Assembly: GCA_965219085.1 (NCBI GenBank)
Contig: OZ244720.1
Location: forward strand, 451,684-515,683
Origin: Dehalococcoidia bacterium
GTDB taxonomy: Bacteria > Chloroflexota > Dehalococcoidia > UBA2979
DNA length: 64,000 nt
Direction: 5' to 3'
Part shown: piece by piece, positions 2,656 through 53,906 of the stretch
How positions within the stretch are numbered: the stretch's first letter is position 1
Layout: each line of letters begins with the position of its first letter
Made by a program: the position numbers and the translations under genes
Notes under the pieces: model-generated
Databases searched by the model: none
What the model saw: only the letters and a program-made list of their open reading frames with translations
What the model was told of the DNA's origin: nothing

Positions 2656-3135
2656 CTACCGACGGCGCCGCCTTCGGCGAGGCTCGGAGGCGGGTGCGCC
2701 CAGCGGGCACGAGCCGTCGTGTGTGAGCAGGTGCAGATGACCGCGATTCTGGTAGACGCTGCCCCGTGGGTGGTCGACGAGGGCGGGATTTCCGAAGTCC
2801 GCGTGTAGTCTGCGGTCCGAAGAACAGAGCAGCCGTGCTCCAGAGACGCGGGCGAGAGCGATGACATGAGCGTCGTTCGAGACGCATTGGCCCTCGACCT
2901 GGGCCGTCTCCGCTGCCACCTCCTCGGGCGAAATGAATCGGGCGAGCTTCGCGCGCTCCCAGTTCCGGAGCAGCCGTCGAGCATCGCCGACCTCGAAGAG
3001 CTCGTCGAGCAGTCGGCCGCCTGCGACAAGCACTCCCTGCCCGCTAGCGATCCATTCCCAGAGCGGCTCGAGTTCTTGATCGACTGGATCGCCAAAGAAC
3101 CGGGGAGCGACGTTCGCGTCGACGATCGCGCACAC
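2656..3135 (-). CDS. PIN-like domain protein, partner of upstream ATPase
   Basis: Starts MCAIVDANV, later SNDAHV and SSD acidic positions resembling PIN catalytic residues; start codon immediately abuts ATPase stop (3136). Confidence 0.5.
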   Translation of the reverse strand: MCAIVDANVAPRFFGDPVDQELEPLWEWIASGQGVLVAGGRLLDELFEVGDARRLLRNWERAKLARFISPEEVAAETAQVEGQCVSNDAHVIALARVSGARLLCSSDRRLHADFGNPALVDHPRGSVYQNRGHLHLLTHDGSCPLGAPASEPRRRRRRR

Positions 3136-4425
3136 TTACTGGCCAACGCCGAAGAAACGGCGGTCCTCTTCAAGAAAGAAGCTGCGGTAGCCCTCCGGCA
3201 CATCAACGACTCGGCCTGCTGCGTCGACTTCGATCTCGTGGATCTGTACCCCGCCGCGGCCCTGCTCGAAGTACAGGATCATCACGTCACTCGGCCTGAT
3301 CTTTTCGTCGCGCACGTCCATGCGCACGCGGTCGACGAGGTAATCGCTGTGCGTCTCGACGACCACGGGATCCCGGCCGCTTGCAGCCAGTTGGGCGAAG
3401 AAGGAGCCTATCGCGGCTTGCGCGCGTGGGTGCAGGTGGACTTCGGGTTGTTGAATGAGCAGCATCTCCATAGGCGAGGCTGAGACACAGTCTGCGATGA
3501 TCGGGATTGCTTGGCTGACCCCGTAGCCGACATCGATAAGGTTGCGCGCCTTCCCGCCGCGAGCAGGCTTAACCTCGATCTGGAACGGGTCGCTCCCCCG
3601 ACTTCCGAGCCTGCGGATGCCGAGGCTGGCGTACAGACCGCTCGCTTTTCCGAAGTCATTGAGTTCTTCGTTGTAGAGCTTGTCTTCACCCGCTAGCCAC
3701 GCGGCCAGCGTAACCGGGATGTGGTCACCCTCGGGACGGCGGGGCTCCGCCGTCGGATCATAGGTTCGGCGCGGGCTCGTTCGGATTGGCGCGAACGCAT
3801 TGGGTCGGTCTAAAGAATCTCTCAGCGCGCCAACGAGCAGCACAAGGAAAGATTCGCTATGTTCGCGCGCTATGCCGGGGTCGGCCCCGTCAGCCGAGAT
3901 GAGCGTGTGGGTTAGGACTGGCCAGAGGCTGGCAGCTTGACGAGCCCTCTGATCCCGAATCCCCAGCGCGACCGGCCTTTCCAGTACTGTCTCACCCCCG
4001 ACGGAGAACGAGACCGCAGGCTCGCCCCCTTCCAGACCCTTGAGCCCTAGCAGGTACTCCCCTGCAGAGGCGCAGAATTCAGAGATACTCGGCTGAGCGT
4101 CTCGGGATATGAAGCGGGATTCGACTCGCAACTCGTGATGCCGACCTCGATTTAGCGGAAAGTCAGGGCTCTCAAACTCGAACTGTAGCCCCACGGCGAA
4201 GCTCTTCGCCGGACGTCCTCGATTGTTGGCGACCTGGTCGTAGCTGCCGAGGCGGAACGGCTCCTCGTTGAAGTTTGGCTCCATCCGGTCGTGGGCTGCT
4301 CGTACCCCAGCGAGGAACGAGGTTTTGCCCGTGCTGTTCTCCCCCACGAGCAGCGTCAGCGGCCGGATCGGCACCTCGTGGCGGCCCGCGAAGCAGCGGA
4401 AGTCCTCGAGGATCAACGTGTTCAT
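3136..4425 (-). CDS. AAA_21/ABC-type (OLD- or abortive-infection-like) ATPase with degenerate Walker B
   Basis: Walker A GENSTGKTS; Walker B region MLLIQQPEVHLHP (QQ instead of DE); H-loop ETHSDYL; lower-GC region. Confidence 0.8.
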   Translation of the reverse strand: MNTLILEDFRCFAGRHEVPIRPLTLLVGENSTGKTSFLAGVRAAHDRMEPNFNEEPFRLGSYDQVANNRGRPAKSFAVGLQFEFESPDFPLNRGRHHELRVESRFISRDAQPSISEFCASAGEYLLGLKGLEGGEPAVSFSVGGETVLERPVALGIRDQRARQAASLWPVLTHTLISADGADPGIAREHSESFLVLLVGALRDSLDRPNAFAPIRTSPRRTYDPTAEPRRPEGDHIPVTLAAWLAGEDKLYNEELNDFGKASGLYASLGIRRLGSRGSDPFQIEVKPARGGKARNLIDVGYGVSQAIPIIADCVSASPMEMLLIQQPEVHLHPRAQAAIGSFFAQLAASGRDPVVVETHSDYLVDRVRMDVRDEKIRPSDVMILYFEQGRGGVQIHEIEVDAAGRVVDVPEGYRSFFLEEDRRFFGVGQ

Positions 4426-9229: not shown

Positions 9230-10089
9230 GTTGCGGTGGCGGGGGAGCGCTCCTGGGCGGTGACGACGGCGCAGGCGAGCATGCCGGGGCCCGTGTGGAC
9301 GCCGATCGCGGGCCCCACCTCGCCGGTGATGAGCTCGGCGTCGGGCGCGAGGGCGCGCAACTCCCCCGCCAGATCCGCGGAATCGCCGGGGCTGGCGCCG
9401 TGCGCGGCCATCATCTGCTCAATCGGGGCCAACTCGGACACGCGACGCAGCATGTCGGCCACGGCCTTGCGCCTCGTGCGTACGCGGCCGGCCGCCTCCA
9501 CTTCGCCGTCGCGGATCGTGAGCAGGGGCTTCACCCGCAACAGGGTGCCGATCGCCGCGCCCGCCCGTCCGATGCGCCCACCGCGCTGGAGGTACTCGAG
9601 CGTGTCGAGGAGGAAGAAGGTGTGCGTGCGGCCGAACTGGGCCATCGCGAGGTCGCGTACCTCATCGAGGCCGGCGCCGCCCGCGGCCGCCCTCGCGGCG
9701 GTGATCACGCCCAGACCCATCGCCATCGTCGCGAGCGCGGAGTTGATGCACTCGATGCGTACGCCCTCCACGCCCTGGGCGCCCTGGCGCGCCGAGCCGA
9801 GGGTGCCGCTCAGCTTCTCGGAGACGTGGATCGACAGGATCTCCGTGGCCCCCTCGGCGGCGAGCTGTTCGTAGGCCGCACGGAACGCGCCCGGTGCGGG
9901 CTGTGACGTGGTCGGGAGCACGGACTCGCGCCCGAGACGCTCGAAGAAGCCCCGTGACTGGATGTCGACGCCGTCGAGGAGTTCCTCGTCGCCGAACAGC
10001 ACGCTCGCCGGGACGACGGTGATGTTGTGCTCGGCCGCCAGCTCCGGGCTGAGGTCGGCGGTCGAGTCGGTGACGATTCGGAGGCTCAC
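9226..10089 (-). CDS. DegV family fatty-acid-binding protein
   Basis: MSLRIVTDSTADL start typical for DegV. Confidence 0.85.
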   Translation of the reverse strand: MSLRIVTDSTADLSPELAAEHNITVVPASVLFGDEELLDGVDIQSRGFFERLGRESVLPTTSQPAPGAFRAAYEQLAAEGATEILSIHVSEKLSGTLGSARQGAQGVEGVRIECINSALATMAMGLGVITAARAAAGGAGLDEVRDLAMAQFGRTHTFFLLDTLEYLQRGGRIGRAGAAIGTLLRVKPLLTIRDGEVEAAGRVRTRRKAVADMLRRVSELAPIEQMMAAHGASPGDSADLAGELRALAPDAELITGEVGPAIGVHTGPGMLACAVVTAQERSPATAT

Positions 10090-10120
10090 GATGACTGGTC
10101 CATCCGCGTACGCGCGCTCG

Positions 10121-11734
10121 TCATTCGACGCCTGCGAGGTAAGGGTAGTGCGGCTGTCCGCCCATGACCACCTCGACTTCGACGCCGGGGTGGGCCGCCT
10201 CGATCAGGTCCGGCAGGCTGTACGCCGCGCTCTCGGGTGCGTCCGCGCCGAGGATGAGCGTGACGATCTCGCCGTCGTCGCCGATGGCCTCGGCGAGGCC
10301 GATCATCAGCGCTTCCTCAGGCGTCTCGGTGCGGGCCTTGAGCGTGCCGTCGACGAGCACGATGGAGTCGCCGATCCGCACGGCGACCCCGTCGACGGTG
10401 GTGTCGCGGACCGCCTCCGTCACCTCCACGTTGCGCACGGACGTGGCCGCCTCGGCCAGCTCCGCAGCGAGGCCCTCGAGGTCCTCGCCCGGCACGAACG
10501 CGACCGCGGCGGCGAGCCCGGCCGCCACTGACTTCGCGGGCACGACGGTGATACGGTCCGGCTCCTGCGTCGCGGCCTGCTGCGCCGTCATCACGACGTT
10601 CGAGTCGTTGGGGAGGATGAAGGTGTGCTCGGCGCCGGCGCGCAGCGCCGCCTCCAGCACGTCGCCGGCGCTCGGGTTATTCGTCGCGCCACCGTCGACG
10701 ATGCCGGTCGCGCCGAGGTCGCGGAACGCGATCCGGAGCCCGTCTCCCTGCACGACGGCGACGAGGCCGACGGGGGGAGCGTCGCCCGCTGCCTCCTCGT
10801 GGCCCGCGGCCCACTCGTCGTGCTGGGCCTGCATGTCCTCGACCTTGACGTTCTGCAGCTCACCGTAGCTCGCGCCGGCCGCCACTGCAGCCGCGGGCGT
10901 CTCCATGTGGACATGCACGTGGAGTGTGCGCGTGTCACCGACGACCAGTAGCGACTCACCACCCGCCCCCGCCAGCTCGTTCGCAAGCGCGTCGCGGTCC
11001 AGGTCCTGGCCGCTCACCAGGTACTCGACGCAGAAGCCGTGACCCTCGTGCCCTACGCCCTCGAGCTGGACGGCGCCGACGGGCGCCTCCGGCGGCGGCG
11101 GCAACTGCTCGCCCATGACGCCGAAGCGCAGCCCCTCGAGCAGCACGGCGACGCCCTCGCCGCCCGCGTCGACGACGCCGGCGTCGCGCAACTGCGGCAG
11201 CAGCTCGGGCGTGCGCTCCACGCTGTCGCGCGCGGCGGCGACGGTCGCGTCCAGGACCGATGCCAGCGACGGGTCGGCCGCCTGGTTCGCGACGGCGCCC
11301 TCGGCGGCCTCGCGCATCACAGTCAGCATCGTGCCCTCGACGGGCGTGGCGACCGCGGAGTAGGCCGCCGTCGCGGCGGATTCGAGCGCACCGAGCAGTT
11401 CGGACGGGCCGATGTCGGCGTTGCCCTCGAGGCTGTCGGCGAGCCCGCGCACCATTTGCGAGAGGATCACGCCGCTGTTGCCGCGCGCGCCCAGCAGAGC
11501 GCCCTGCGCCATCGCGCCCGTGAAGTCGCCGACGTTGGTGGCAGCTCCCTCGTGCTCATCGGCGGCCCGGCGCGCGGCGCGCAGGGTGAGCAGCATGTTG
11601 GTGCCGGTGTCCCCGTCGGGGACGGGGTAGACGTTGATCGCGTTGATAGCCTCGCGGTTCAATTCGAACCACTCCAGTGCGACGTCGAGCGCGTCGCTGA
11701 ACGCCTCTGCGTGCAGGCGCTGTGGTGGGGTCAT
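10121..11734 (-). CDS. DAK2 domain-containing protein YloV
   Basis: N-terminal Dak2 domain, C-terminal DegV-like fold; conserved rpmB/yloV/degV/recG synteny. Confidence 0.85.
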   Translation of the reverse strand: MTPPQRLHAEAFSDALDVALEWFELNREAINAINVYPVPDGDTGTNMLLTLRAARRAADEHEGAATNVGDFTGAMAQGALLGARGNSGVILSQMVRGLADSLEGNADIGPSELLGALESAATAAYSAVATPVEGTMLTVMREAAEGAVANQAADPSLASVLDATVAAARDSVERTPELLPQLRDAGVVDAGGEGVAVLLEGLRFGVMGEQLPPPPEAPVGAVQLEGVGHEGHGFCVEYLVSGQDLDRDALANELAGAGGESLLVVGDTRTLHVHVHMETPAAAVAAGASYGELQNVKVEDMQAQHDEWAAGHEEAAGDAPPVGLVAVVQGDGLRIAFRDLGATGIVDGGATNNPSAGDVLEAALRAGAEHTFILPNDSNVVMTAQQAATQEPDRITVVPAKSVAAGLAAAVAFVPGEDLEGLAAELAEAATSVRNVEVTEAVRDTTVDGVAVRIGDSIVLVDGTLKARTETPEEALMIGLAEAIGDDGEIVTLILGADAPESAAYSLPDLIEAAHPGVEVEVVMGGQPHYPYLAGVE

Positions 11735-11836
11735 CGCCTCGCCGTTCCTTATCTCCGATAGCGTGTCTTCGGGCTCAATGCTACGCTCTTAATCCCGATC
11801 GCGGATAACGAACGATTACGTTCGTCACGAGGATGG

Positions 11837-12100
11837 TTGGCGATGGCCTCCGGCAAGTGTGACCTCTGCCCGAAGCGCACGACGTTCGGGCGCAACATCC
11901 GCCACAAGCACTCCGGCCGCTGGGAGCGCAAGGCCCCCCGCACGAACCGCGAGTTCCGTCCGAACGTCCAGAGCAAGCGCCTGCTCATCGATGGCCGCAT
12001 GCGCCGCGTCAACGTCTGCACGCGCTGCCTCCGCACGCAGCTCAAGCGCATGGCCGCAGGCAAGCCCGCGATCCCCGAGGGCGCGCTCGCCAGGGCGTAG
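11837..12100 (+). CDS. rpmB: 50S ribosomal protein L28
   Basis: MASGKCDLCPK...RRVNVCTRCL matches L28. Confidence 0.9.
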   Translation: MAMASGKCDLCPKRTTFGRNIRHKHSGRWERKAPRTNREFRPNVQSKRLLIDGRMRRVNVCTRCLRTQLKRMAAGKPAIPEGALARA

Positions 12101-12148
12101 CACCCGCCCCTCCCACCTCCTGTCACATGTGACCGGCGACCTCGTCGC

Positions 12149-12829
12149 CTACGGCGTGCGTCCGATGGCCGCGCGCAGTCCGGCGATCGCCTCTGCCGGG
12201 GTCTCGCGGTCGTTGTAGACGGCCGAGCCGGCGACCAGCAGCGTCGCCCCTGCCTCGACGCACATCGAGGCGTTGTGGGCCTTGACCCCGCCGTCGACCT
12301 CGATCACGAGCGAGGCGCCCGCGGCTTCGGCCATCCGCCGCAGCTCGCCGACCTTCGGTAGCTGGTCGACGAGCAGCTCCTGCCCGCCGCGGCCGGGGTG
12401 TACGAGCATCACGGTCACCATGTCGAGCGCGCCCACCCACGGTTCGAGGCTCGACGCGGGCGTCGGCGGGCTGATAGCGATGCCCGCCTCGCAGCCGAGT
12501 TCGCGCGTGCGCTCGATCGCCCGCTGCGGTTCAGGTGCGGCTTCGAGGTGGAAGATCAGCCGGTCCGCCCCCGCCTCGGCCAGCGGCGCGAGTTGGTCGA
12601 GCGGGTTGGTGACCATCATGTGCGCCTCGACGGGCAGCCGCGTCGCACGGCGTACCGCCTGCAGCACGAGCGGCCCGAGGCTGAGCTGCGGCACGAAGTG
12701 CCCGTCCATCACGTCGATGTGCATCACATCTGCGCCGCCGGCCTCGGCCGCCGCCACGTCTTCGGCGAGGCGGCCGAAGTCGGCCGTGAGGATCGAGGGT
12801 GCGATGAGCACCCGCTGCTCGCCGCTCAC
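12149..12829 (-). CDS. rpe: ribulose-phosphate 3-epimerase
   Basis: Start GTG at 12829 (VSGEQRVLIAPSILTADF) with GGAGG RBS; overlaps argH stop as GTGA; upstream 66 codons of ORF are artefact. Confidence 0.85.
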   Translation of the reverse strand: MSGEQRVLIAPSILTADFGRLAEDVAAAEAGGADVMHIDVMDGHFVPQLSLGPLVLQAVRRATRLPVEAHMMVTNPLDQLAPLAEAGADRLIFHLEAAPEPQRAIERTRELGCEAGIAISPPTPASSLEPWVGALDMVTVMLVHPGRGGQELLVDQLPKVGELRRMAEAAGASLVIEVDGGVKAHNASMCVEAGATLLVAGSAVYNDRETPAEAIAGLRAAIGRTP

Positions 12830-14259
12830 GCCGCCTCCTCGCGCAGGCGCGCCCGCGCCGCCTCGCGCTGCTCGGCGACCCGAGCCGGCGCGGTGCCGCC
12901 GGTCGCGCTGCGCGCGGCCAGCGAGGCCTCGATGTCGAGCGAGAGCACGTCCTCGCCGAACGCGGGGTGGGCGGCGCGGTAGTCGTCGAGCGTCAGCTCC
13001 TCGAACGTGCGGCCTGTTCGCTCGCACTCGGCAACGAGGGCGCCGACGGCCTCGTGGGCTTCGCGGAACGGCACGCCGCGCTGCACGAGGTGGTCGGCGA
13101 GGTCGGTGGCGAGCGCGAAGTCGCCGCCCGCGGCCTCGCGGCCGCGCGCGGCGTCGAAGCGCAGCGTGGGCAGCATGGCGGCTACGACGGCGAGCGTGGC
13201 GAGCAGTGTGTCGACGGAGTCGAACAGAGGCTCCTTGTCCTCCTGCAGGTCGCGGTTGTAGGCCAGCGGCTGGCCCTTGAGCAGCGTCAGCGCCTGCACG
13301 AGGTTACCGATGGTGCGGGCGCTCTTGCCGCGGGCCAGCTCAGCGACGTCCGGGTTGCGCTTCTGCGGCATGATGCTCGACCCCGTCGAGAAGGCGTCGT
13401 CGAGCTGCACGAGGCCGAACTCGGCCGACGCCCAGAGCACGATCTCCTCGGCGAACCGCGACACGTGCACCATCGTCAGCGCGGCGGCTGCGTGGAACTC
13501 CACGACGAAGTCGCGGTCCGAGACCGCGTCGAGCGAGTTGGCTGCGACGGCGTCGAACCCCAGCTCGCGCGCCACGAACGCCCGGTCGATCGGGTAGCCG
13601 ACACCGGCGAGCGCGCCCGAGCCGAGCGGCAGCACGTTCGCGGTCGAGCGCGCGGCGCGGAAGCGCGCGGCGTCGCGGGTCAGCATCTCCTCGTAGGCCT
13701 GGAGGTGGTGCGCGAGCAGCACCGGCTGTGCGCGCTGGAGGTGCGTGTAGCCGGAGATCACCGTCGCCGCCTCGCGCTCGGCGAGGTCGAGCAGCGCGCC
13801 CCGCAGCGCCGCGAGGCGCTCGCCCACCTCGTCGCAGGCGGCGCGGACGAACATGCGCAGGTCGGTCGCGACCTGGTCGTTGCGGGAACGCGCGGTGTGG
13901 AGGCGACGCGCCGGCTCGCCGATGCGCTCGGCCAGCGCCGCCTCGATGTTGAGGTGGATGTCCTCGCGGTCTTCGCGGAACTCGAAGTCGCCGGCGGCGA
14001 TTTCGGCCTCGATCGCCTCGAGGCCGGCGGTGATGGCGTCGCGGTCGGCGTCGGAGATGATGCCCTGCGCGGCGAGCATCCGCGCGTGCGCGAGCGAGCC
14101 CGCGATGTCCTCGCGGTAGAGCCTGCGGTCGAAGGCGATGGAGGCGCCGTACGCCTCGGCGAGCGCGTTGGTGGCGCCCTCGAAGCGGCCGCCCCAGAGC
14201 TTGGCCTCGCCGTCCGGCGCGGGCTGGGCGGGTGGAGTCGTGTCGCTGTCCCCGGTCAT
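12826..14259 (-). CDS. argH: argininosuccinate lyase
   Basis: Full-length fumarate-lyase family sequence with the GSSIMPQKRNPD signature. Confidence 0.92.
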   Translation of the reverse strand: MTGDSDTTPPAQPAPDGEAKLWGGRFEGATNALAEAYGASIAFDRRLYREDIAGSLAHARMLAAQGIISDADRDAITAGLEAIEAEIAAGDFEFREDREDIHLNIEAALAERIGEPARRLHTARSRNDQVATDLRMFVRAACDEVGERLAALRGALLDLAEREAATVISGYTHLQRAQPVLLAHHLQAYEEMLTRDAARFRAARSTANVLPLGSGALAGVGYPIDRAFVARELGFDAVAANSLDAVSDRDFVVEFHAAAALTMVHVSRFAEEIVLWASAEFGLVQLDDAFSTGSSIMPQKRNPDVAELARGKSARTIGNLVQALTLLKGQPLAYNRDLQEDKEPLFDSVDTLLATLAVVAAMLPTLRFDAARGREAAGGDFALATDLADHLVQRGVPFREAHEAVGALVAECERTGRTFEELTLDDYRAAHPAFGEDVLSLDIEASLAARSATGGTAPARVAEQREAARARLREEAA

Positions 14260-14305
14260 GGTTCGAGGCTACATCGGGGCCCTGCGGCGTGCGAGCGGCC
14301 GAGCG

Positions 14306-14756
14306 TCAGGCGCCGGGGCGGAGGTCGCCGAGGTCGATGATCCGGCCCGTGGCCCGCCTGAACGTTCGGATCATGGCGCGGTCGGCCGTGATTACGGAAC
14401 AGCCGTTCCGTATCGCAAGCGCGACGTAGAGGCAGTCATATACGGCATGGCCGAAGGCAAGCGACAGCTCGAGCGCCTGAATTGCGAGGCCGGTTGACGG
14501 GACAAGCGAGGGAAGCGTGAGGACAAGCCGATCCAGGGCGTCTCGCGCTTCATCCGGGGCGAGGTCGTCTCTCAGGTGAGAGCGCGCCCACAGCGCATTC
14601 GTGACCTCGGGGAGGTATGCGTCCGGCGCAAGGAGCTGCACTTCGTCTCGCCGAGCCCGGGCGAGAAGGGCGATCGCGACTTCGGAGTGCTCTTCGGGCA
14701 GCACCCACTTGAGGCCTACACATGCGTCGACGACGAACTGGCTCGCAGTAGTCAAC
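14306..14756 (-). CDS. vapC: type II toxin VapC (PIN domain)
   Basis: TTG start (LTTASQFVVDACVG) overlapping vapB stop by 1 nt; PIN acidic residues. Confidence 0.7.
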
Positions 14757-15006
14757 GATCGCGGAATTCGCGGATGATCGGCCAGCTCTCGTCGAGCAGT
14801 CCACCGTGCCGCTCCTCGATGCGAGCTCGCAGCGCGTTCATTTCGGGGATCACGTCCTGAACGCGCTGTTGCCACTGTCGTCGTTCGACGTGCTCCTGCA
14901 GCGCCACGCGCACCACGGCGTTCACGCTCGTGCCGCCCTCGGCCGCCTCCTCGCGGAGGGCCTCGATCACGTCTTCAGGGACGTTTCTGACGGTGAGTTG
15001 CGACAT
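14752..15006 (-). CDS. vapB: type II antitoxin VapB-like (FitA-type DNA-binding)
   Basis: MSQLTVRNVPEDVIEALREEAAEGGTSVNAVVRVALQEH; 84 aa; palindrome TGCCTCGAGGCA just upstream of ATG. Confidence 0.65.
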   Translation of the reverse strand: MSQLTVRNVPEDVIEALREEAAEGGTSVNAVVRVALQEHVERRQWQQRVQDVIPEMNALRARIEERHGGLLDESWPIIREFRDR

Positions 15007-22954: not shown

Positions 22955-23230
22955 ATCGCTTGTGCTCAGCCTGCCGGGATCGCTTGTGCTCAGCCTGCCG
23001 GGATCGCTTGTGCTCAGCCTGCCGGGATCGCTTGTGCTCAGCCTGCCGGGATCGCTTGTGCTCAGCCTGCCGGGATCGCTTGTGCTCAGCCTGCCGGGAT
23101 CGCTTGTGCTCAGCCTGCCGGGATCGCCCGCGCTCAGCCTGCCGGGATCGCTTGCGCTCAGCCTGCCGGGATCGCTTGCGCTTAGCCTTCCGGGATCGCT
23201 TGCGCTTAGCCTTCCGGGATCGCTTGCGCT
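22955..23230. repeat. 24-bp direct tandem repeat x11 (7 identical copies, then 4 diverged)
   Basis: Unit ATCGCTTGTGCTCAGCCTGCCGGG repeated head-to-tail; last copies encode the C-terminus of nth. Confidence 0.9.
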
Positions 23231-23937: not shown

Positions 23938-23982
23938 GACCGCATCGTACGATGGGGCGTGCATCGAGCGGAGGGATGGCGC

Positions 23983-25035
23983 GTGACGGCTGAACAGATT
24001 CGCCTCACCGAGCTCGCATCCTGCGGCGGCTGAGCGGGGAAGCTGGGTCTCGCGACCCTGGCGCAGGTGCTGCGCCCCCTGCACGAGGTCTTCGCTCCCG
24101 GGCAGCACCCCGAGCTGCTCGTCGGCCTGGCGCCGTCCGATGACGCCGCCGTGTACCGGCTGAGCGACGACCTCGCGGTCATCCAGACGCTCGACTTCTT
24201 CCCGCCCGTGGTGGATGACCCGTACACCTACGGCCAGATCGCCGCGGCGAACGCCATGTCCGACGTCTACGCGATGGGTGGCGAGGTGCGGCTCGCGCTC
24301 AACATCGCCGCGTTCCCGGAGGACCTCGACCCCGAGTTGCTCGCCGAGATCGTGCGCGGCGGCGCCGACAAGGTGGCCGAGGCGGGCGGTGTCGTCGCCG
24401 GCGGCCACACCGTGATCGACCAGGAGCCGAAGTTCGGGCTGTCGGTGATGGGCGTGATCCACCCCGACGCCGTGCTCACCACCGGTGGCGCGCGGCCCGG
24501 AGACGCGCTGCTGCTCACCAAGCCCCTCGGTACCGGCATCCTCATGAGCGCGGCCGGCGCGCAACACGACGGCGTCGAAGCAGGCTTCGAGGCGGCCGTC
24601 GAGTCGATGCGGACGCTGAACCGCCACCCCGCGCACCTCGCGCGTGCCGCCGGCGTGCACGCGATGACCGACGTGACGGGCTTCGGGCTCGCCGGGCACG
24701 CCTCCGAGATGGCGCTGCAGAGCGGCGCGACGCTCGTGATCGACCTCAACGCGCTGCCGCTGCTGCCCGACGCCGCGCGCTTCGCCGCCGACGGCGTCGT
24801 GACCGGCGGCGGCAACCGCAACGTCGCGCACCTCGGCGACCGCATCCGCATCGAGGGCGAGCCGGAGCAGGCGCTCGTCGACGTGTTCTACGACCCGCAG
24901 ACCTCGGGCGGCCTGCTCATCGCGCTGCCCGCGGCTGACGCCGAGGCGCTCCGCGAGGCGATCGCGGACGGGGGCGGCGGATGCTGGCGCATCGGACACG
25001 TCGAGGAGGGCCCGCCGCTCGTGGTGACCCGGTGA
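23983..25035 (+). CDS. selD: selenide, water dikinase (selenophosphate synthetase), selenocysteine-containing
   Basis: GTG start at 23983 with GGAGGG RBS; N-terminus MTAEQIRLTELASCGG-U-AGKLG with in-frame TGA at 24031-24033 where SelD has its catalytic Cys/Sec; ORF track only reports from 24067. Confidence 0.85.
24045..24058 (+). promoter_or_regulatory. candidate bacterial SECIS hairpin for selD UGA
   Basis: GGGTC tcgc GACCC stem-loop starting 12 nt after the UGA. Confidence 0.35.
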
Positions 25036-25763
25036 CGCCGCTGGCCCGCGCGGCGCTTGGGGCGCTGGGGCTCGCGCTGGCGCTGCTCGCCGCGTCGTGC
25101 AGCGGCGGCGAGGACGCGCCCGAGGCCACGGCGACCTCGACACCCACGGCCACCCCCACGCCCATCGACCCCGCCGCCCTGATCCGCGAGTCCGCCGGCC
25201 GCATGGAGGCCGTCGAGCGCTTCCACTTCACGCTCGATCACGAGAACGGGGCGAGCGAGATCGTGCGCGGCATCATGATGGTGTACGCCGAAGGCGACAT
25301 CGGCGGCGCGCAGCACATGCGCGCGGCGATCGAGGGTGCGCTCGGAACGCTCAAGTTCGAGACGGGCGTCATCGTGCTGCCCGAGGGAAGCTGGATCCAG
25401 AACCCCATCGACCGCAGCTGGGAGCCCGAGGACATTTCGATCGATGCGTTCTTCGACCCGCAGGAGGGCGTCGCAGCTCTCATGCGGGCGGTGCTCGACC
25501 CTGTCCTCGACGGCCGCGAGCGCGTCGGCGGCGTCGAGGCGTACCGCATCGAGGTGACCGCCGACTCGGGCGACCTCGCGATCTTCCCGACCGCCACGCC
25601 GGGCTTCGAGGTGCGCGCGACGCTGTGGATCGGCGTCGAGGATCTGCTCGTCTACCGCGTCGACGTGCGCGGGGCGATCTCCGAGACCGAGTCGCCCGAC
25701 ATCCTGCGCCGCCTCGAGTTGAGCCGCTTCGGCGAGGACGTGGACATTGTCCCGCCGCCCTGA
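25032..25763 (+). CDS. LppX/LprG (LprAFG) family lipoprotein
   Basis: GTG start overlapping selD stop (GTGA); signal peptide with lipobox LLAAS-C; followed by MFS pump as in the LprG-P55 operon. Confidence 0.7.
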   Translation: MTPLARAALGALGLALALLAASCSGGEDAPEATATSTPTATPTPIDPAALIRESAGRMEAVERFHFTLDHENGASEIVRGIMMVYAEGDIGGAQHMRAAIEGALGTLKFETGVIVLPEGSWIQNPIDRSWEPEDISIDAFFDPQEGVAALMRAVLDPVLDGRERVGGVEAYRIEVTADSGDLAIFPTATPGFEVRATLWIGVEDLLVYRVDVRGAISETESPDILRRLELSRFGEDVDIVPPP

Positions 25764-27243
25764 TCCTGGTCGCGCGGAGGCTGGGGATCTCGACGCGGCC
25801 GGGTCGCGCCACAGCGCATGGCTGCTGATCGCCGTCGCGGGCGGCGTGTTCATCGCCGCCGACGATCAGACCTCGGTGGTCACGGTGCTGCCTGCGCTGA
25901 TCCCGGACATCGGGCTGGCCGTCGACGACTTCTTCCTCGCGTCGTGGGTGATCAACGGGTACCTGCTCGGCTACATCGTGGCGCTGCCGATCGTGGGCCG
26001 CATCGCCGACGCGCGCGGTCACGGGCGCGTCTACGCCGCGTCGCTGGGCGTGTTCATGCTGGGCAGCGCGCTGGTGGCCGCTGCGCCGGACTTCTGGTTC
26101 CTGGTCGTCGCGAGGGGCTTGCAGGCCGTCGGGGGCGGCGCGGTCGTCCCGGTGGCGATGGCGATCGTCGTCGGGCAGATGCCGCCCGGGCGCCGCGCGC
26201 TCGGCCTCGGCGCGATCGCCGCGGCGTCCGAGGGGGGCGCCCTCGTCGGCCCGCTCTGGGGCGGCCTCATCACGGAACTGCTCGGCTGGCGGTGGATGTT
26301 CTGGCTCAACATCCCGATGTCGCTGCCCGTGCTCGCCGGCGTGTGGTGGCTCGCGCGCAACGAGCGCGCCGAGGGGCGCATCGACTGGCCGGGGGCGGCG
26401 ATGCTCGCCGCCGCGCTGGCCGCGCTCACCATCGCCATCGCCGACGACCCGATCGCGCCTCGGCCGTGGGCGATCACCGCGCTGCTGTTCACGGTCACGG
26501 CGGCGCTCGCGGTCGCGTTCGCGCTGCGCCAGCGCGGGCTCGAGGAGCCCATGGTGCGGCTCGCGATGTTCGCGCCGAGGCAGGTGTCGAGCTCGGCGGT
26601 GATGAGCGTGCTCGTCGGCGCGGGGCTCATCACCGCGCTCATCAGCGTGCCGCTCTTCGTCAACCTCGTGCTGGTCGAGCGCCCCATCGACGGCGGCGTG
26701 ACACTGCTGCGCTTCACCGCCGCCGTGCCCGTCGGCGCGCTCGCGGGCGGGTGGGTGACGGGGCGGATCGGTCCGCGTCTGCCGGCCGCTGTGGGCGTGC
26801 TGCTCGGGGCGATCTGCTTCGCCGGGCTCGTCGGGTGGGGCGAGGTGCTCCAGGAGGTCTGGCGCACGACACCGCTCGTCGTCGGGGGCTTCGGGTTCGG
26901 GCTGCTCATCGCCCCGCTCGGCGTGGCGGTGCTGAGCCATGTGCGCGACGAGGAGCGCGCCGTGGCCGCCTCGTGGCTCACGCTCGCGCGGATGGTCGGG
27001 ATGCTCGTGGGCACGGGACTGCTCACCTCGCACGGGCTGGGGCGGTTCTACGCGCGTGCCGGCTCGATCGAGTTCGGCTCGCCCGAGTTCGCCGAGCTGG
27101 TCACCGAGGCCCAGGTGTCGACGTTCCACGAGATATGGGTCGTCGCGGCTGCGGTGTTGGTGCTCACGGCCGCGCTGGCGTGGTGGCTGGGCGGCGATGG
27201 AGGGACGGGCGAGGGTGCGGCGGAGTGGTGGTCGGCGCGATGA
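25747..27243 (+). CDS. MFS efflux transporter (P55/Rv1410c-like)
   Basis: 14 TM-type MFS sequence, overlaps lipoprotein gene end. Confidence 0.8.
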   Translation: MSRRPDPGRAEAGDLDAAGSRHSAWLLIAVAGGVFIAADDQTSVVTVLPALIPDIGLAVDDFFLASWVINGYLLGYIVALPIVGRIADARGHGRVYAASLGVFMLGSALVAAAPDFWFLVVARGLQAVGGGAVVPVAMAIVVGQMPPGRRALGLGAIAAASEGGALVGPLWGGLITELLGWRWMFWLNIPMSLPVLAGVWWLARNERAEGRIDWPGAAMLAAALAALTIAIADDPIAPRPWAITALLFTVTAALAVAFALRQRGLEEPMVRLAMFAPRQVSSSAVMSVLVGAGLITALISVPLFVNLVLVERPIDGGVTLLRFTAAVPVGALAGGWVTGRIGPRLPAAVGVLLGAICFAGLVGWGEVLQEVWRTTPLVVGGFGFGLLIAPLGVAVLSHVRDEERAVAASWLTLARMVGMLVGTGLLTSHGLGRFYARAGSIEFGSPEFAELVTEAQVSTFHEIWVVAAAVLVLTAALAWWLGGDGGTGEGAAEWWSAR

Positions 27244-27337: not shown

Positions 27338-28561
27338 CTAGCCGCGCGGCAGCGCCAGTCCGCGCGTCGCGATGATGTTGCGCTGGATCTCGTTCGAGCC
27401 GCCGAAGATCGTGAACACCACGCTGTGCACGTAGAGCTGCGTGAAGCGCGCGTCCAGCGGGGTCAGCTCGTGCGCGCGGTCCCAGATGTTCGAGTAGAGC
27501 CCGAACGCCTTCATGCCGGTGTTCGCCGTGCGCTGTTCCAGTTCCGAGCCGAAGATCTTCGAGGTTGACGCCTCGTAGTTCGGGACCATGCCGCCCGCCT
27601 GCATCGAGATGATGCGGAACGAGAAGTTGAAGAGCACCTCGGACTCGATCCAGCGGTCGGCGATCGCCGACCGCGTGGTGCGCGCCCGGTCCTGCGTCCG
27701 CAACTGGCCGTCGTCCGTACCCATGTAGTCGATGAGCGACCGGAGCCGCCGCCGCGTCTCGACGGCGCCGGCGATGTTGGAGCGCTCGAAGTCGAGCAGG
27801 GTCATGCCGACGTACCAGCCGCGGTTGACCTCGCCGATGACGTTGTTGGCCGGCACGTGTACGTCCTCGAAGAACGTCTCGTTGGTGGCGTGCTCAAAGC
27901 CCATCGAGATGATGGGGCGGACGGAGATACCGTTGTTGGTCTGCGGCATGACCATGAAGGTGATGCCGCGGTGCTTCGGGGCGTCGGGGTCGGTGCGGAA
28001 CATCCCGAACAGCCAGTTGGACTTGTGGGCCGAAGAGGTCCACATCTTCTGGCCGTTGATGATGTACTCGTCGCCGTCGCGGATGGCGCGCGTCTGCAGC
28101 GAGGCGAGGTCAGAGCCGGCGCCCGGCTCCGAGAAGCCCTGCGACCACAGCATCTCGCCGCTCAGCGACGGCGCCAGCAGGCGCTCCTTCTGCTCGTCGG
28201 TGCCGTGGATCAGGACCGTCGGCCCGAGGAGCGAGAGGCCGCTCCCGCCGACCATCGGCGCCTCGGCCTCGGCCATCTCCATGTTGAAGATGAACTGCTC
28301 CATGGCGGTGAGGCCGGCGCCGCCGTACTCCTGCGGCCAGTGCGGAGCGACCCAGTTGCGCGACGACATGGTGTCGGCCCACTCCTGCGCCGCGGCCTTC
28401 GCCTCGTCGCTGCCGTGGGCCATGTCCTGCTGCCAGTCATCCTCGAGGGTGACGGCGTTCCAGACCCGCTTGTCCCTGTAGTACTGCGGCAGGTTCGAGT
28501 CGATGAACGAGCGCACGTTCTCGCGGAACGCCGCCTGCTCTGCCGTGTCTTCCCAATCCAT
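27338..28561 (-). CDS. acyl-CoA dehydrogenase (copy 1)
   Basis: 407 aa ACAD fold (N, middle, C domains). Confidence 0.88.
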   Translation of the reverse strand: MDWEDTAEQAAFRENVRSFIDSNLPQYYRDKRVWNAVTLEDDWQQDMAHGSDEAKAAAQEWADTMSSRNWVAPHWPQEYGGAGLTAMEQFIFNMEMAEAEAPMVGGSGLSLLGPTVLIHGTDEQKERLLAPSLSGEMLWSQGFSEPGAGSDLASLQTRAIRDGDEYIINGQKMWTSSAHKSNWLFGMFRTDPDAPKHRGITFMVMPQTNNGISVRPIISMGFEHATNETFFEDVHVPANNVIGEVNRGWYVGMTLLDFERSNIAGAVETRRRLRSLIDYMGTDDGQLRTQDRARTTRSAIADRWIESEVLFNFSFRIISMQAGGMVPNYEASTSKIFGSELEQRTANTGMKAFGLYSNIWDRAHELTPLDARFTQLYVHSVVFTIFGGSNEIQRNIIATRGLALPRG

Positions 28562-28726: not shown

Positions 28727-29950
28727 CTAGCTGCGAGGCAGCGCCAGTCCGCGCGTCGCGATGATGTTGCGCTGGATCTCGTTCGAGCCGCCGAAGATCG
28801 TGAACACCACGCTGTGCACGTAGAGCTGCGTGAAGCGCGCGTCCAGCGGGGTCAGCTCGTGCGCGCGGTCCCAGATGTTCGCGTACAGGCCGAACGCCTT
28901 CATGCCGGTGTTCGCCGTGCGCTGCGACAGCTCCGAGCTGAAGATCTTGGAGGTCGACGCCTCGTAGTTCGGCACCATGCCGCCCGCCTGCATCGAGATG
29001 ATGCGGAACGAGAAGTTGAACAGCACCTCGGACTCGATCCAGCGGTCGGCGATCGCCGACCGCGTGGTGCGCGCGCGGTCCTGCGTCCGCAGCTCGCCCT
29101 CGTCCGTGCCCATGTAGTCGATGAGCGACTCCAGCCGCCGCCGCGTCTCGACCGCGCCGGCGATGTTGGAGCGCTCGAAGTCGAGCAGCGTCATGCCGAC
29201 GTACCAGCCGCGGTTCTCCTCGCCGATGACGTTGTTAGCGGGGACGTGTACGTCCTCGAAGAAGGTCTCGTTGGTGGCGTGCTCGAAGCCCATCGAGATG
29301 ATCGGGCGTACCGAAATGCCGTTGTCGGTCTGCGGCATGACCATGAAGCTGATGCCGCGGTGCTTCGGCGCGTCGGGGTCGGTGCGGAACAGCCCGAACA
29401 GCCAGTTGGACTTGTGGGCCGTGGAGGTCCACATCTTCTGGCCGTTGATGACGTACTCGTCGCCGTCGCGCACCGCGCGCGTCTGCAGCGAGGCGAGGTC
29501 TGAGCCGGCGCCCGGCTCGGAGAAGCCCTGCGACCACAGCATCTCGCCGCGCAGCGTCGGCGCCAGCAGGCGCTCCTTCTGCTCGTCGGTGCCGTGGATC
29601 AGCACCGTCGGACCCATCAGCGAGAGGCCCTGCCCGCCGACCATGGGGGCCTCGGCCTCGGCCATCTCCATGTTGAAGATGAACTGCTCCATGGTGGTGA
29701 GGCCGGCGCCGCCGTACGCCTGCGGCCAGTGCGGGGCGACCCAGCTGCGCTGCGACATGCGGTCGGACCACTCCTGCGCCGCGGTCTTCGCCTGGTCGCT
29801 GCCGTGGACCATGTCCATCTGCCAGTCATCCTCGAGGGTGACGGCGTCCCACGCGCGCTTGTCCTTGTAGTACTGCGGCAGGTTCGAGTCGATGAACGAC
29901 CGGACGTCATCGCGGAACGTTGCCTGCTCTGCCGTGTCTGCCCAATCCAT
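28727..29950 (-). CDS. acyl-CoA dehydrogenase (copy 2, about 90% identical paralog)
   Basis: Same length and near-identical sequence to copy 1; 1389-bp period. Confidence 0.88.
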   Translation of the reverse strand: MDWADTAEQATFRDDVRSFIDSNLPQYYKDKRAWDAVTLEDDWQMDMVHGSDQAKTAAQEWSDRMSQRSWVAPHWPQAYGGAGLTTMEQFIFNMEMAEAEAPMVGGQGLSLMGPTVLIHGTDEQKERLLAPTLRGEMLWSQGFSEPGAGSDLASLQTRAVRDGDEYVINGQKMWTSTAHKSNWLFGLFRTDPDAPKHRGISFMVMPQTDNGISVRPIISMGFEHATNETFFEDVHVPANNVIGEENRGWYVGMTLLDFERSNIAGAVETRRRLESLIDYMGTDEGELRTQDRARTTRSAIADRWIESEVLFNFSFRIISMQAGGMVPNYEASTSKIFSSELSQRTANTGMKAFGLYANIWDRAHELTPLDARFTQLYVHSVVFTIFGGSNEIQRNIIATRGLALPRS

Positions 29951-41326: not shown

Positions 41327-42568
41327 ATGCTGAGCGCAACGGACGCAGCCCCGCCGAGGCGCTACCGCTTCGTGGTCGAGGGCACCCTGCTGTGGGTGCA
41401 GATCGCCATGGGGCTCAGCTTCATCGCGGTTGCCCCGCTCTTCCCGCTGATCATCGATGAGTACGGCGTCGACAACGCGACCGCGAGCCTGCTCATCGGT
41501 GGCACCGCGCTGGCGTTCGCGATTTCGACGATCCCGGGCGGCCTCGTCGCGGCGCGCTTCGGCTGGTGGCGCGCGACGTTCTTCGGCGGCCTGCTGATGT
41601 CGTCGATGGTGTTCTCGCCGTTCGCCGCGAACTTCGCGATGCTGCTCGGGCTGCGGCTCGCCTTCGCCGTCGGGGGCGCGACCGTGATGGGCGCGCTGCC
41701 GTCGGCGGTGATGAGCTGGTTCCCGATGCGCGAGCTGCCTGTGGTCAACGGCACGAACATCGTCGGACAGAGCGTGGGTGTCACCGTGTCCGTGTTCTCG
41801 GTCGCGTTCATCGCCGAACTCGTCGGGTGGCGCGAGTCGCTCATGCTGTTCGGCTTTGTGGGGCTCACCGGGGTATGTGTGTTCGCGCTGTTCGCGCGGA
41901 GTCCCGAGCGGCCGGCCGGCGCGCCGGTGCGCCCGCCCGTCTCGTTCGCCCTGCTGGGCTCGGTCGCACGCGACCGACCGACGCTGCTGCTTGGCATCGG
42001 CGTCGCGGGCGTCGTGGGGGCGTTCATCGGCCTCAACGCGTGGCTGCCGACGTACTACCAGGAGGAGTTCGGGTTCACGCTGGAGCGCTCCGGGCAGGTG
42101 GTGGCGATCCCGTCGTTCTTCGGGATCATCGGCTCGCTGGTTGGTTCGTGGCTGCCCGTCATGCTCGGGCGCCGCAAGCCGCTCATCATGCTCCCGGGGT
42201 TCGTGATGCCGTTCGCCGTGATCGGCTGCTTCGTCACGGACGCGCCGTACGTGCTGTACCCGAGTCTCGCGCTGCTCGGGTTCGTGACCTGGCTCCACTT
42301 CCCCTCGGGGCTGACCTTGCTCATGGAGTTGGGTGGGGCGACGCTGGAGCGCGCCACGCTCTCCGTCGCGATGATGCTGACGGTCGGCAACATCACCGGC
42401 TTCTTCTCGCCGCTGATGGTCGGCTTCCTGCGCGATCAGACGGGCAGCTTCGGGCTCGGCTTCACCCTCTGCGCGCTGTTCCCGCTCACGCTTATCTTGG
42501 CCGGCGCGCTCCTCCCGGAAACCGGCCCCCGCGGCCGGCGACCTACTCCAGTCGCCGAGGCCTCGTAG
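41327..42568 (+). CDS. MFS transporter
   Basis: 12-TM MFS sequence. Confidence 0.8.
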   Translation: MLSATDAAPPRRYRFVVEGTLLWVQIAMGLSFIAVAPLFPLIIDEYGVDNATASLLIGGTALAFAISTIPGGLVAARFGWWRATFFGGLLMSSMVFSPFAANFAMLLGLRLAFAVGGATVMGALPSAVMSWFPMRELPVVNGTNIVGQSVGVTVSVFSVAFIAELVGWRESLMLFGFVGLTGVCVFALFARSPERPAGAPVRPPVSFALLGSVARDRPTLLLGIGVAGVVGAFIGLNAWLPTYYQEEFGFTLERSGQVVAIPSFFGIIGSLVGSWLPVMLGRRKPLIMLPGFVMPFAVIGCFVTDAPYVLYPSLALLGFVTWLHFPSGLTLLMELGGATLERATLSVAMMLTVGNITGFFSPLMVGFLRDQTGSFGLGFTLCALFPLTLILAGALLPETGPRGRRPTPVAEAS

Positions 42569-49923: not shown

Positions 49924-51514
49924 CCCCGAAGCCACCGATCGAAGCTTGACGGGCGGGCTGCCGGGCTGGCGGAGAGTTCGGCGGGTGTGCCGTGGTGCGC
50001 CAGGCGGTGCCGGGGGCGGGCCGGAGCGAGGAGCCGGCGCTCAGCGCGGCTCGGGGGCGCTGAGAGCGCGGGCGCGAGGGTGCGCGAGGCGTGCGCGGGC
50101 ATGCTGGCGCGAGGCTCGGACCCGGGCCGGCGCTGTGAGCGCGCGTCAGGCCGGGAGCGGAAGCGCCCGTAACCGCGCCAGGGCGGCTGCCCACTGCCCG
50201 GCCCAGGGCCAGCGCTTCGGGAGGTGCAGGGTCGTCACGATTCCCTCGCCGAGCCCGAGCCGCGCCGTCCAGCGGGCGAGGTTGTGCGCGATCACCTGCA
50301 CCGCGAGCCATGCCGCGTTCGCGGCGAAGCGGCCCGAGGGGAGATGGTTGAGCCCGACGCCGTACTTGAGGTCGCGGATCGCGTTCTCGATCTCGGCGTG
50401 ACGGCGATGGTCTGCCTCCAGCTCCAGCAGCTCCCCCGCGCGGTCGCTGATGAAGGCGTGGTAGCTGTAGTCCACGAAGAGCGCGAGCTGTGAGCCGGGC
50501 GTCGGCTGGACGCGCCGCACGATGAGCCGCACCGGGGTGGCGTCCGCCGTGTGCTGGAACGGCGTGTAGGTCGTCTCGGCGACATCGGCGCCGCCCGGCA
50601 GCCAGTACGGGATCGGCGTCCAGTCCTCTTGCGGTATCGCCTCGATCAGCCGGCGCACGCTCGGCTGCTGGCGAATGGTGATCGAGAAGCGGAGATCCTG
50701 CTTGCGGCAGACGGCGACGACGGCGTGGTTGTAGAAGCCGCTGTCGGCTCGCACCGTGAGCTGCCCGCTCGCTCCGGCGTCGCGTACCCGCGCCACCGTC
50801 TCACGCAGGAAGTGTGCGGCCCCCCGTGCGGTGTTGGCGCGGCCCTCGCGCAGCCGCGCCATCAGCACGTCACCCGTCCCGGCCGCCACCGCGAGCAGCG
50901 GGTGATAGCCGCGCACGCCCGTGTAGCCGTGGTGCCGGGCGCCCTCCTTGGCCAGGCCGTAGGTCTCACAGATCGTCGAGTCGAGGTCGATCGTGAACGG
51001 CGCCGCGCCGGGTCCCGCCCCGGCCGCCCATGCGCGGGCGAGCAATGCGCGGCTGACGCGGTCGAGCTGGCGGACGTGGCCCCAGCGGAAGCTGCGCAGG
51101 AAGGTTCCGAGGGTGGACGGCGCCTTGACCGTGCAACCCAGCACGCTCGCCGTCCCGCCGGCGCGCAAGGCAGCGGCGTCGTCGATGCAGTCGCCGCCCG
51201 CGAGCGCCGAGGCGACCAGGGTCAGCAGCTTGTCGCCGGCGTTCGCGCGCCCCGCTGCGTCACCGAGGTCGAGGTGGGCGTCCGCCAGTGCACGGAGGCC
51301 GAGCCGGCCAGCGAGCGTGGCGGGGAGCAGCAGGCCTGCGTGGTCCACGAGGCGGTCGTCGCCTGAGGCGATGTCTATCCGGTCGGGGTTACTCGCTGCT
51401 AGCATCGAATGGGTGCTCCTGTGGCTGTGACGTGAATTCTCAAAACCCATTGTCCCAGCTACAGCGGAGCACCCAACCGCAGCCCCTCGCCCGCTCTTCT
51501 TCGGTGGATCAGGG
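49924..51514 (-). mobile_element. IS1380-family insertion sequence (1591 bp)
   Basis: Imperfect terminal IRs CCCCGAAGCCACCGA / CCCTGATCCACCGA; 4-bp target duplication CTTA (49920-49923 and 51515-51518). Confidence 0.8.
50146..51450 (-). CDS. IS1380-family DDE transposase
   Basis: 434 aa, ...RFAANAAWLAVQVIAHNLARW and SITIRQQ motifs typical of IS1380. Confidence 0.85.
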   Translation of the reverse strand: MGFENSRHSHRSTHSMLAASNPDRIDIASGDDRLVDHAGLLLPATLAGRLGLRALADAHLDLGDAAGRANAGDKLLTLVASALAGGDCIDDAAALRAGGTASVLGCTVKAPSTLGTFLRSFRWGHVRQLDRVSRALLARAWAAGAGPGAAPFTIDLDSTICETYGLAKEGARHHGYTGVRGYHPLLAVAAGTGDVLMARLREGRANTARGAAHFLRETVARVRDAGASGQLTVRADSGFYNHAVVAVCRKQDLRFSITIRQQPSVRRLIEAIPQEDWTPIPYWLPGGADVAETTYTPFQHTADATPVRLIVRRVQPTPGSQLALFVDYSYHAFISDRAGELLELEADHRRHAEIENAIRDLKYGVGLNHLPSGRFAANAAWLAVQVIAHNLARWTARLGLGEGIVTTLHLPKRWPWAGQWAAALARLRALPLPA

Positions 51515-53255: not shown

Positions 53256-53906
53256 CTACTCGCCGTTGAGCTTCGGAACCTTGAGCTGCTCCATCACGCG
53301 CTCGAAGACCTCGTACTCCTGTGCGCCGACGACGGCGTAGCGCTCGTTCAGGATGAACGTCGGCACGCCCGTCACGCCGATCGACTGCGCCCAGGTGATG
53401 CCGTTGTCGACCTGCTGGCGGTAGCGCCCGGTCTCGAGGGCGTCGCGCAGGTCATCGGCATCGAGGCCCGTCTCGTTGCCGATCTGCAGCAGGGTGTCGA
53501 GGTCGCCGAGGTTGCCGTCCTCCTCGAAGTGGGTGCGGAACAGTGCGCGGTGTAGCTCATCGCCGTCGTGGCCGTGTTCCTGCGCGTACTCGGCGGTCTC
53601 GAGCGAGAGGTGCGAGTTCGGCGTGTAGGTGCGGCCGCGCTTGAAGGTGATGCCGGCCTGCTGGCCGCGCAGTTCGAGCGCGGATGGGGGGTCACCGGGC
53701 TTGGTGTAGGGCTCGCGGCTGCGACCCTCGGGCGGGATCGACGGGTCGAGCAGGAAGGGCGCCCAGCGCACGTCCATGTCGTACTCCTGCCGCAGCTTCT
53801 CGACCTCCACGAGGCCGACATAACACCACGGTCAGATGAAGTCGGAGACGATGATGAGCGAGGTGCGGTGCTCCTCGGCGTCGGTGTTGAGTTCGTCGGT
53901 GGTCAT
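53256..53906 (-). CDS. DsbA/FrnE-like thiol:disulfide oxidoreductase, selenocysteine-containing (U-P-W-C)
   Basis: ATG at 53906 with GGGAGGG RBS; MTTDELNTDAEEHRTSLIIVSDFI-U-PWCYVGLVE...: TGA (53832-53834) sits exactly at first Cys of the CPWCYIG DsbA motif; ORF track reports only from 53810. Confidence 0.7.
53801..53817 (-). promoter_or_regulatory. candidate bacterial SECIS hairpin for DsbA-like UGA
   Basis: CGGCCUC gug GAGGUCG 7-bp stem (one G-U) with GUG loop, 14 nt after UGA. Confidence 0.3.

Follow-up and report, generated by a model that had tools for sequence, protein, structure and literature searches.

The question raised by this locus is whether a TGA that interrupts the beginning of a selenophosphate synthetase gene (selD) ends translation or is read as Sec. 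The locus lies within a 64-kb stretch of DNA, here called the window, for which a mechanical list of open reading frames (ORFs) reports only the part of the gene downstream of the TGA. The first-pass annotation had instead proposed a longer frame starting at an upstream GTG, with the TGA at the catalytic Cys/Sec position and a SECIS-like hairpin behind it. Based on the comparisons described below, selD (23983-25035, plus strand) very probably encodes a selenophosphate synthetase in which the catalytic residue 17 is predicted to be Sec. The elements of the gene are as follows.

23970-23985, plus strand: Shine-Dalgarno-like GGAGG (23970-23974) and GTG start codon (23983-23985), recognized from the sequence
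23983-25035, plus strand: full selD coding sequence, a frame of 351 codons (350 residues and the stop at 25033-25035), with Sec predicted at codon 17
24031-24033, plus strand: in-frame TGA, predicted Sec codon (residue 17), in the motif C14-G-G-U17 with Lys20 after it, aligned with Cys17 of Escherichia coli
24067-25035, plus strand: shortened selD ORF of the mechanical list, 322 amino acids from a GTG start, without the catalytic Sec/Lys loop

In translation, the frame reads GTG (23983-23985), VTAEQIRLTELASCGG, TGA (24031-24033), AGKLGLATLAQVLRPLHEV, and stays open until the TGA at 25033-25035, the codon at 24031-24033 being the single in-frame TGA within it. Every coordinate that the first-pass annotation had given for this frame was correct, including the GTG at 23983, and so was its remark that the ORF track miscalls the gene, as the list gives only 24067-25035 (322 amino acids) and not the full 23983-25035. 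The mechanical call drops 28 N-terminal residues, which carry the catalytic Sec and Lys.

With Cys written in place of the TGA, the predicted product is unambiguously a SelD. Family membership was scored by the TIGR00476 cut-off, the presence of the AIRS and AIRS_C domains and the Sec/Cys17 plus Lys20 loop, all of which were found. The U-to-C protein reaches 372.3 bits against the NCBIfam equivalog TIGR00476 (selD; cut-off 125) and 321.1 bits against NF002098 (cut-off 299), and Pfam assigns AIRS (PF00586, 89 bits) and AIRS_C (PF02769, 79 bits). The best solved-structure matches obtained with phmmer are E. coli SelD (3u0o, E=3e-64, with an alignment spanning residues 2-329) and Aquifex aeolicus SelD (2yye). 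All of the motifs DDAAVY, DFF, SDxxAMGG and MTDVTGFG appear in the structure alignment, and Lys20 of the E. coli protein is preserved (K20 aligns with K20). The TGA falls on Cys17 of 3u0o, which is the catalytic position assigned to it by the first-pass annotation, and on the equivalent site of 2yye. The region upstream of the listed ORF, which had been read as a SelD N-terminus, aligns as such: the TIGR00476 match already starts before the TGA, at residue 7, and the codons in between are conserved as amino acids.

This conservation was followed in a scan for selD orthologues with one genome per species, which gave 80 loci, nearly all from metagenome-assembled genomes of Dehalococcoidia and other Chloroflexota; the closest relatives (L001-L003) are 90% identical. 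In the orthologue set together with the window, the codon aligned to the TGA is TGA in 61 cases (window included), TGC in 17 and TGT in two, and no other codon is found, so that the alignment to SelD families with Sec and Cys variants, as suggested in the first-pass annotation, gives a column of TGA or Cys codons only. The TGA is shared by at least 60 public Chloroflexota-type genomes, and the closest relatives, L001 to L011, all have it at the Sec codon. Over the 12 codons before the TGA, the amino acids are kept among the Sec forms (R in 60/61, L in 60/61, T in 61/61 and G in 61/61), whereas their synonymous sites are free to change: six Arg codons are in use at position -10, four Thr codons at position -8 and, for Leu, six codons. 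An ATG or GTG stands at the position of the window's start codon (-16 from the TGA) in 45 of the 61 Sec forms, and most of the others begin one codon earlier. Given that the upstream amino acids are conserved and the synonymous sites are free, the stretch before the TGA is translated in the selD frame, and translation of this stretch across orthologues makes it very unlikely that the gene is a pseudogene, that the TGA is an assembly error or that the protein starts at 24067. A UGA aligned with Cys in homologues and flanked by coding conservation on both sides is one mark of a bacterial selenoprotein gene, and both are found here. In 51 of the 61 Sec forms, a further Cys precedes the Sec by three residues (C-G-G-U, a CxxU motif; 24022-24042 in the window), and the Cys-form orthologues have CxxC where the Sec forms have CxxU.

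The stop codons of the 40 confident window genes are TAG in 23 cases, TGA in 13 and TAA in four. With a G+C content of 70%, it is unusual that most stops are TAG. A genetic code with reassigned UGA was considered and rejected, since TGA is the ordinary stop of 13 of these genes.

Two hairpins follow the TGA within the coding sequence.

24045-24058, plus strand: hairpin H1, GGGUC-UCGC-GACCC (arms 24045-24049 and 24054-24058), predicted at -8.2 kcal/mol, beginning 11 nt after the TGA
24060-24076, plus strand: hairpin H2, GGCGCAG-GUG-CUGCGCC, with the loop GUG at 24067-24069, 33 nt after the UGA, predicted at -12.1 kcal/mol

The GGGTC/GACCC hairpin of the first-pass annotation is H1; it does exist at 24045-24058, with an offset of 11 nt from the TGA rather than the 12 nt given. 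Its description as SECIS-like did not survive comparison with the published model. The bacterial SECIS model (PMC13188914, bSECISearch model as quoted there) has a loop of 3-9 nt on a stem of 4-16 bp, a G within the first two loop positions, a UGA-to-loop distance of 16-37 nt and an MFE of -7.5 kcal/mol or lower. H2 agrees with it on all four counts (a loop of 3 nt on a 7-bp stem, G as the first loop base, a distance of 33 nt from the UGA and -12.1 kcal/mol), whereas H1, with its loop UCGC, has no G at either of the two leading positions and fails the loop rule of the same model.

The pairing of H1 and H2 was counted for the named structure over 59 distinct aligned Sec-form segments. For H2, 92.5% of cells are paired, with compensatory changes in three pairs, and the unpaired cells come mostly from clades carrying a bulge of one nucleotide. 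In the loop, G37 and U38 do not vary among the 59 sequences, and the third base varies freely. For H1, 71% of cells are paired in a fixed register, and in four of the five pairs both partners have changed; the register itself differs from clade to clade, however, and the Sec forms do not conserve the loop sequence. RNAalifold alone finds just four pairs of H2, the inner ones, since the Ser and Gln clades have one-nucleotide bulges that displace the outer pairs; the assessment of H2 was therefore based on the named-structure counts and on synonymous sites.

The strongest test of the hairpins compares Sec and Cys forms at synonymous sites, where fourfold-degenerate positions within H2 are frozen in the Sec forms only. 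The Ala codon in H2 is GCG in 57/57 Sec forms versus 7/14 Cys forms (elsewhere in the same genes, GCG makes up 38% of Ala codons), and the Leu codon in the 3' arm of H2 has a third-position G in 61/61 Sec forms versus 11/19 Cys forms (gene-wide background, 51%); each of these contrasts has a Fisher's exact p of ~2.6e-6, a value that ignores the shared ancestry of the sequences. Likewise ignoring shared ancestry, the H2 segment has a predicted energy of -10.65 kcal/mol in the Sec forms versus -4.52 kcal/mol in the Cys forms (p=1e-10), and H1 one of -7.9 versus -3.7 kcal/mol (p=2e-6). One Cys form whose sisters are Sec forms (L071) has retained H1 (-10.2 kcal/mol) and its H2 has decayed (-3.4 kcal/mol), as one would expect were H2 the element specific to Sec. 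We conclude that H2, and more weakly H1, is under selection at the RNA level in the Sec forms only.

Folded as one unit, the 76 nt after the UGA do no better than shuffled sequence (z=-0.38), and a long-range multiloop predicted downstream of the UGA was set aside on this ground. A search of the whole 64-kb window with Rfam at gathering thresholds, SECIS families included, gave no match. Of the two hairpins, H2 is most likely the apical stem-loop of the SECIS and the candidate site of SelB binding, a role given to it because it agrees with all four features of the model and H1 fails the loop-G rule. H1 would then probably be an accessory or spacer element and not the SelB-binding loop.

Proximity of Sec machinery to selD was screened in the window and in its relatives. 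ARAGORN found no tRNA in the 64-kb window, so there is no tRNA-Sec in it, and Rfam detected none either; tblastn queries with the SelA and SelB proteins of E. coli gave no selA or selB in the window, and NCBIfam and Pfam assigned neither selA, selB, selU/ybbB nor any other selenium-metabolism gene among its ~48 genes. Also in the closest relatives (L001-L011), no selA, selB or tRNA-Sec was found within 10 kb of selD. Among the 80 selD loci, ARAGORN places a tRNA-Sec beside selD in a single case, a soil Chloroflexia metagenome-assembled genome (L075), where a compact cluster (10001-14459) has the order selD(TGA)-selB-tRNA-SeC-selA.

10001-11035 of L075: TGA-containing selD
11082-12947 of L075, minus strand: selB
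13022-13118 of L075: tRNA-SeC with anticodon tca, found by ARAGORN
13161-14459 of L075: selA

In four other loci (L040, L051, L080 and L028), selB adjoins selD as well. For the genome under study, we infer that selA, selB and selC are present elsewhere, with indirect support from the L075 cluster and from the second selenoprotein gene described next.

The window was also scanned for other in-frame TGA codons flanked by coding-like sequence. Only one gene was retained, which encodes a DsbA-like protein; a candidate TGA at 42438 was rejected as an antisense shadow.

53256-53906, minus strand: candidate DsbA-like selenoprotein gene, starting at ATG 53906 and with its stop at 53256, with TGA 53834-53832 in the motif U-P-W-C
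53818-53800, minus strand: hairpin of this gene, UCGGCCUC-GUG-GAGGUCGA, 8 bp, -12.2 kcal/mol, starting 13 nt and with its loop 21 nt after the UGA

The PF01323 (DSBA) match of this gene (109.9 bits) spans the TGA, and the listed ORF is only the post-TGA part, 53256-53810. Among metagenome homologues, the TGA is kept in L082, L083, L085 and L091 and replaced by Cys in ~75 others. A DSBA domain, a UxxC motif with Cys homologues and a SECIS-like hairpin are therefore all present, as used to recognize DsbA-like selenoproteins, a listed family (PMC1794560, PMC13188914); the window gene shares its DSBA domain, U-P-W-C motif and SECIS-like hairpin with form 1 of that family (PF01323, UxxC). A second UGA-containing redox gene ~30 kb from selD, with a predicted hairpin of the same GUG-loop type, supports Sec decoding in this organism.

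Other readings of the TGA have to be weighed against this evidence. If it were a true stop, because the gene is a pseudogene or has suffered a nonsense mutation or because the assembly is in error, there would be either no SelD or a truncated protein made from GTG 24067. We regard this as very improbable. The ORF finder does return a clean 322-residue frame from that GTG, TGA is a normal stop in 13 of 40 window genes and the 64-kb window has no Sec machinery; however, the identical TGA recurs in 61 independent genomes, the 16 codons before it are under protein-level purifying selection, and GTG 24067 is the loop of the conserved H2, with a third base that is free to vary among orthologues. Moreover, a protein begun at residue 29 would be devoid of Sec/Cys17 and Lys20. 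In E. coli SelD, Cys17 and Lys20 are both essential. Translation could also continue through the UGA in a way that involves no Sec, either with a near-cognate tRNA inserting Trp or Cys with the aid of the hairpins or with a reassigned UGA. Stable hairpins right after a stop can stimulate read-through in general, and Sec machinery was not directly seen within the 64-kb window, but the codon is exchanged solely with Cys (TGC 17, TGT 2) and never with Trp or Gly, at a position that is the catalytic nucleophile. H2 fits the SelB-type loop rule with G-U opening its loop, relatives with the same TGA have selB, selA and tRNA-Sec beside selD, and TGA still terminates 13 of the 40 window genes. Taken against these points, read-through with another amino acid has only a very small chance of being correct.

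Within the preferred reading, in which Sec is inserted at the UGA, the division of labor between the two hairpins could be the reverse of the one given above, with H1 binding SelB and H2 being accessory or conserved for another reason. The spacing speaks for this: H1 starts 11 nt after the UGA, similar to the 13 nt of the DsbA-like gene, whereas the stem base of H2 is 26 nt from the UGA. In the fdhF gene of E. coli, the SECIS is spaced ~11 nt from the UGA, which is the optimal distance for fdhF. In addition, four of the five H1 pairs have compensatory changes, and H1 is more stable in Sec than in Cys forms. Nevertheless, we hold this assignment to be unlikely, as the loop of H1 (UCGC) lacks the G in its first two positions and is unconserved in sequence, its register shifts between clades with just 71% of cells paired, and the Cys form L071 keeps H1 at -10.2 kcal/mol with H2 decayed to -3.4 kcal/mol. 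The two hairpins might also work together. In this Chloroflexota clade, selD may have a bipartite SECIS, with H1 and H2 both selected only as long as the gene uses Sec, and with H1 as a spacer, or an element that causes pausing, by which the SelB-binding loop could work from a distance of 33 nt; we consider this combination possible, though doubtful. Should it be true, the geometry would fall outside the standard single-stem-loop bSECIS model. Compared with the bSECIS consensus, H2 as the preferred SelB-binding candidate is within the limits, yet its 33-nt spacing is near the upper one, and the window has the covarying H1 between the UGA and H2, not nested with the latter. Compared with the E. 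coli fdhF SECIS, the local sequence CAGGUGCUG resembles the apical CAGGUCUG.

Most of what is described here has precedents. Among bacterial selenoprotein families, FdhA is the most widespread and SelD the second most (PMC1794560, PMC13188914), selenoproteins were recorded in Chloroflexi by 2006 (PMC1794560) and SECIS elements in bacterial Sec-SelD genes were described earlier (PMC4561486). That Sec-SelD genes with an in-frame UGA are missed by simple ORF finders is a known phenomenon. The Sec-SelD of A. aeolicus (PDB 2yye/2zod) and those encoded in Clostridia, Deltaproteobacteria and Pasteurellales share with the window SelD the fold and domains, the UGA in the N-terminal glycine-rich loop, the Lys three residues further on and a SECIS within the coding sequence. 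The window gene differs from them in its motif (C-G-G-U-A-G-K), in its Dehalococcoidia/Chloroflexota lineage, and in having the loop of the candidate SECIS 33 nt from the UGA with an extra hairpin before it. With E. coli SelD (3u0o), it has in common the alignment of Cys17 with Sec17, the Lys20 and the conserved ATP- and metal-binding Asp motifs. The E. coli protein has Cys and not Sec, and therefore needs no SECIS; its local motif is C-G-C-K, where the catalytic Cys is followed two residues later by another Cys, whereas in the window protein the additional Cys lies three residues before the Sec. Only the apparent hairpin pair, as a possible two-part SECIS, and the long UGA-to-loop distance are mildly new, and the rest adds nothing new in kind.

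As for the genomic context, selD is preceded by argD, a UPF0182-type gene, argB, argJ and then a tandem repeat, together with a divergently transcribed nth-like glycosylase gene, and it is followed by genes for an LppX_LprAFG lipoprotein, an MFS transporter and two acyl-CoA dehydrogenases. The tandem repeat (22955-23230) is near-perfect, with 11.5 copies of a 24-nt unit, ATCGCTTGTGCTCAGCCTGCCGGG, at 97% matches; it separates argJ from the nth-like glycosylase gene at the 3' end of the latter, where it overlaps the last codons. In L001, the closest relative, the 2.5 kb upstream of selD contain no tandem repeat according to TRF. The stop of selD overlaps a GTG (GTGA, 25032-25035) that is the probable start of the LppX_LprAFG gene (plus strand), the product of which has both a signal peptide and a lipobox, LAASC. 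Next comes a gene for a DHA2 MFS transporter (25747-27243, plus strand); the pair (25032-27243, plus strand) is arranged like mycobacterial LprG/P55 and appears to be co-transcribed with selD. The acyl-CoA dehydrogenase genes (27338-28561 and 28727-29950, minus strand) are tandem paralogs of 407 amino acids and of PimC-like type, and genes for CoA-transferases, enoyl-CoA hydratases and MFS transporters are abundant across the window. Three islands of lower third-position G+C (2656-4425, 14306-14875 and 50146-51450, all on the minus strand) hold mobile or defense-type genes, namely an AAA_15/AbiEii-like ATPase next to a small ORF, a PIN/VapC-like toxin, assigned by eye from the sequence, with a small upstream partner, and an IS1380-family transposase.

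In the mechanism that we propose for selD, translation would begin at GTG 23983. When UGA 24031-24033 enters the A site, a SelB·GTP·Sec-tRNA(Sec) complex tethered to a hairpin inside the coding sequence, most likely H2, would deliver Sec in place of termination. The resulting SelD is predicted to make selenophosphate from selenide and ATP, and selenophosphate would in turn be the selenium donor for Sec-tRNA(Sec). As selenophosphate is needed for Sec-tRNA(Sec), the Sec-containing SelD would be required for its own synthesis, and such an enzyme would place itself in an autoregulatory dependence on selenium. The idea that Sec decoding is maintained for SelD, which supports its own synthesis, is already published (PMC1794560).

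For the organism, the Sec-SelD together with the DsbA-like U-P-W-C gene would mark the genome as Sec-decoding, so that more TGA-interrupted redox genes are to be expected elsewhere in it. Annotation or metabolic inference that starts from the shortened selD ORF would describe a dead enzyme and miss the use of selenium by this organism.
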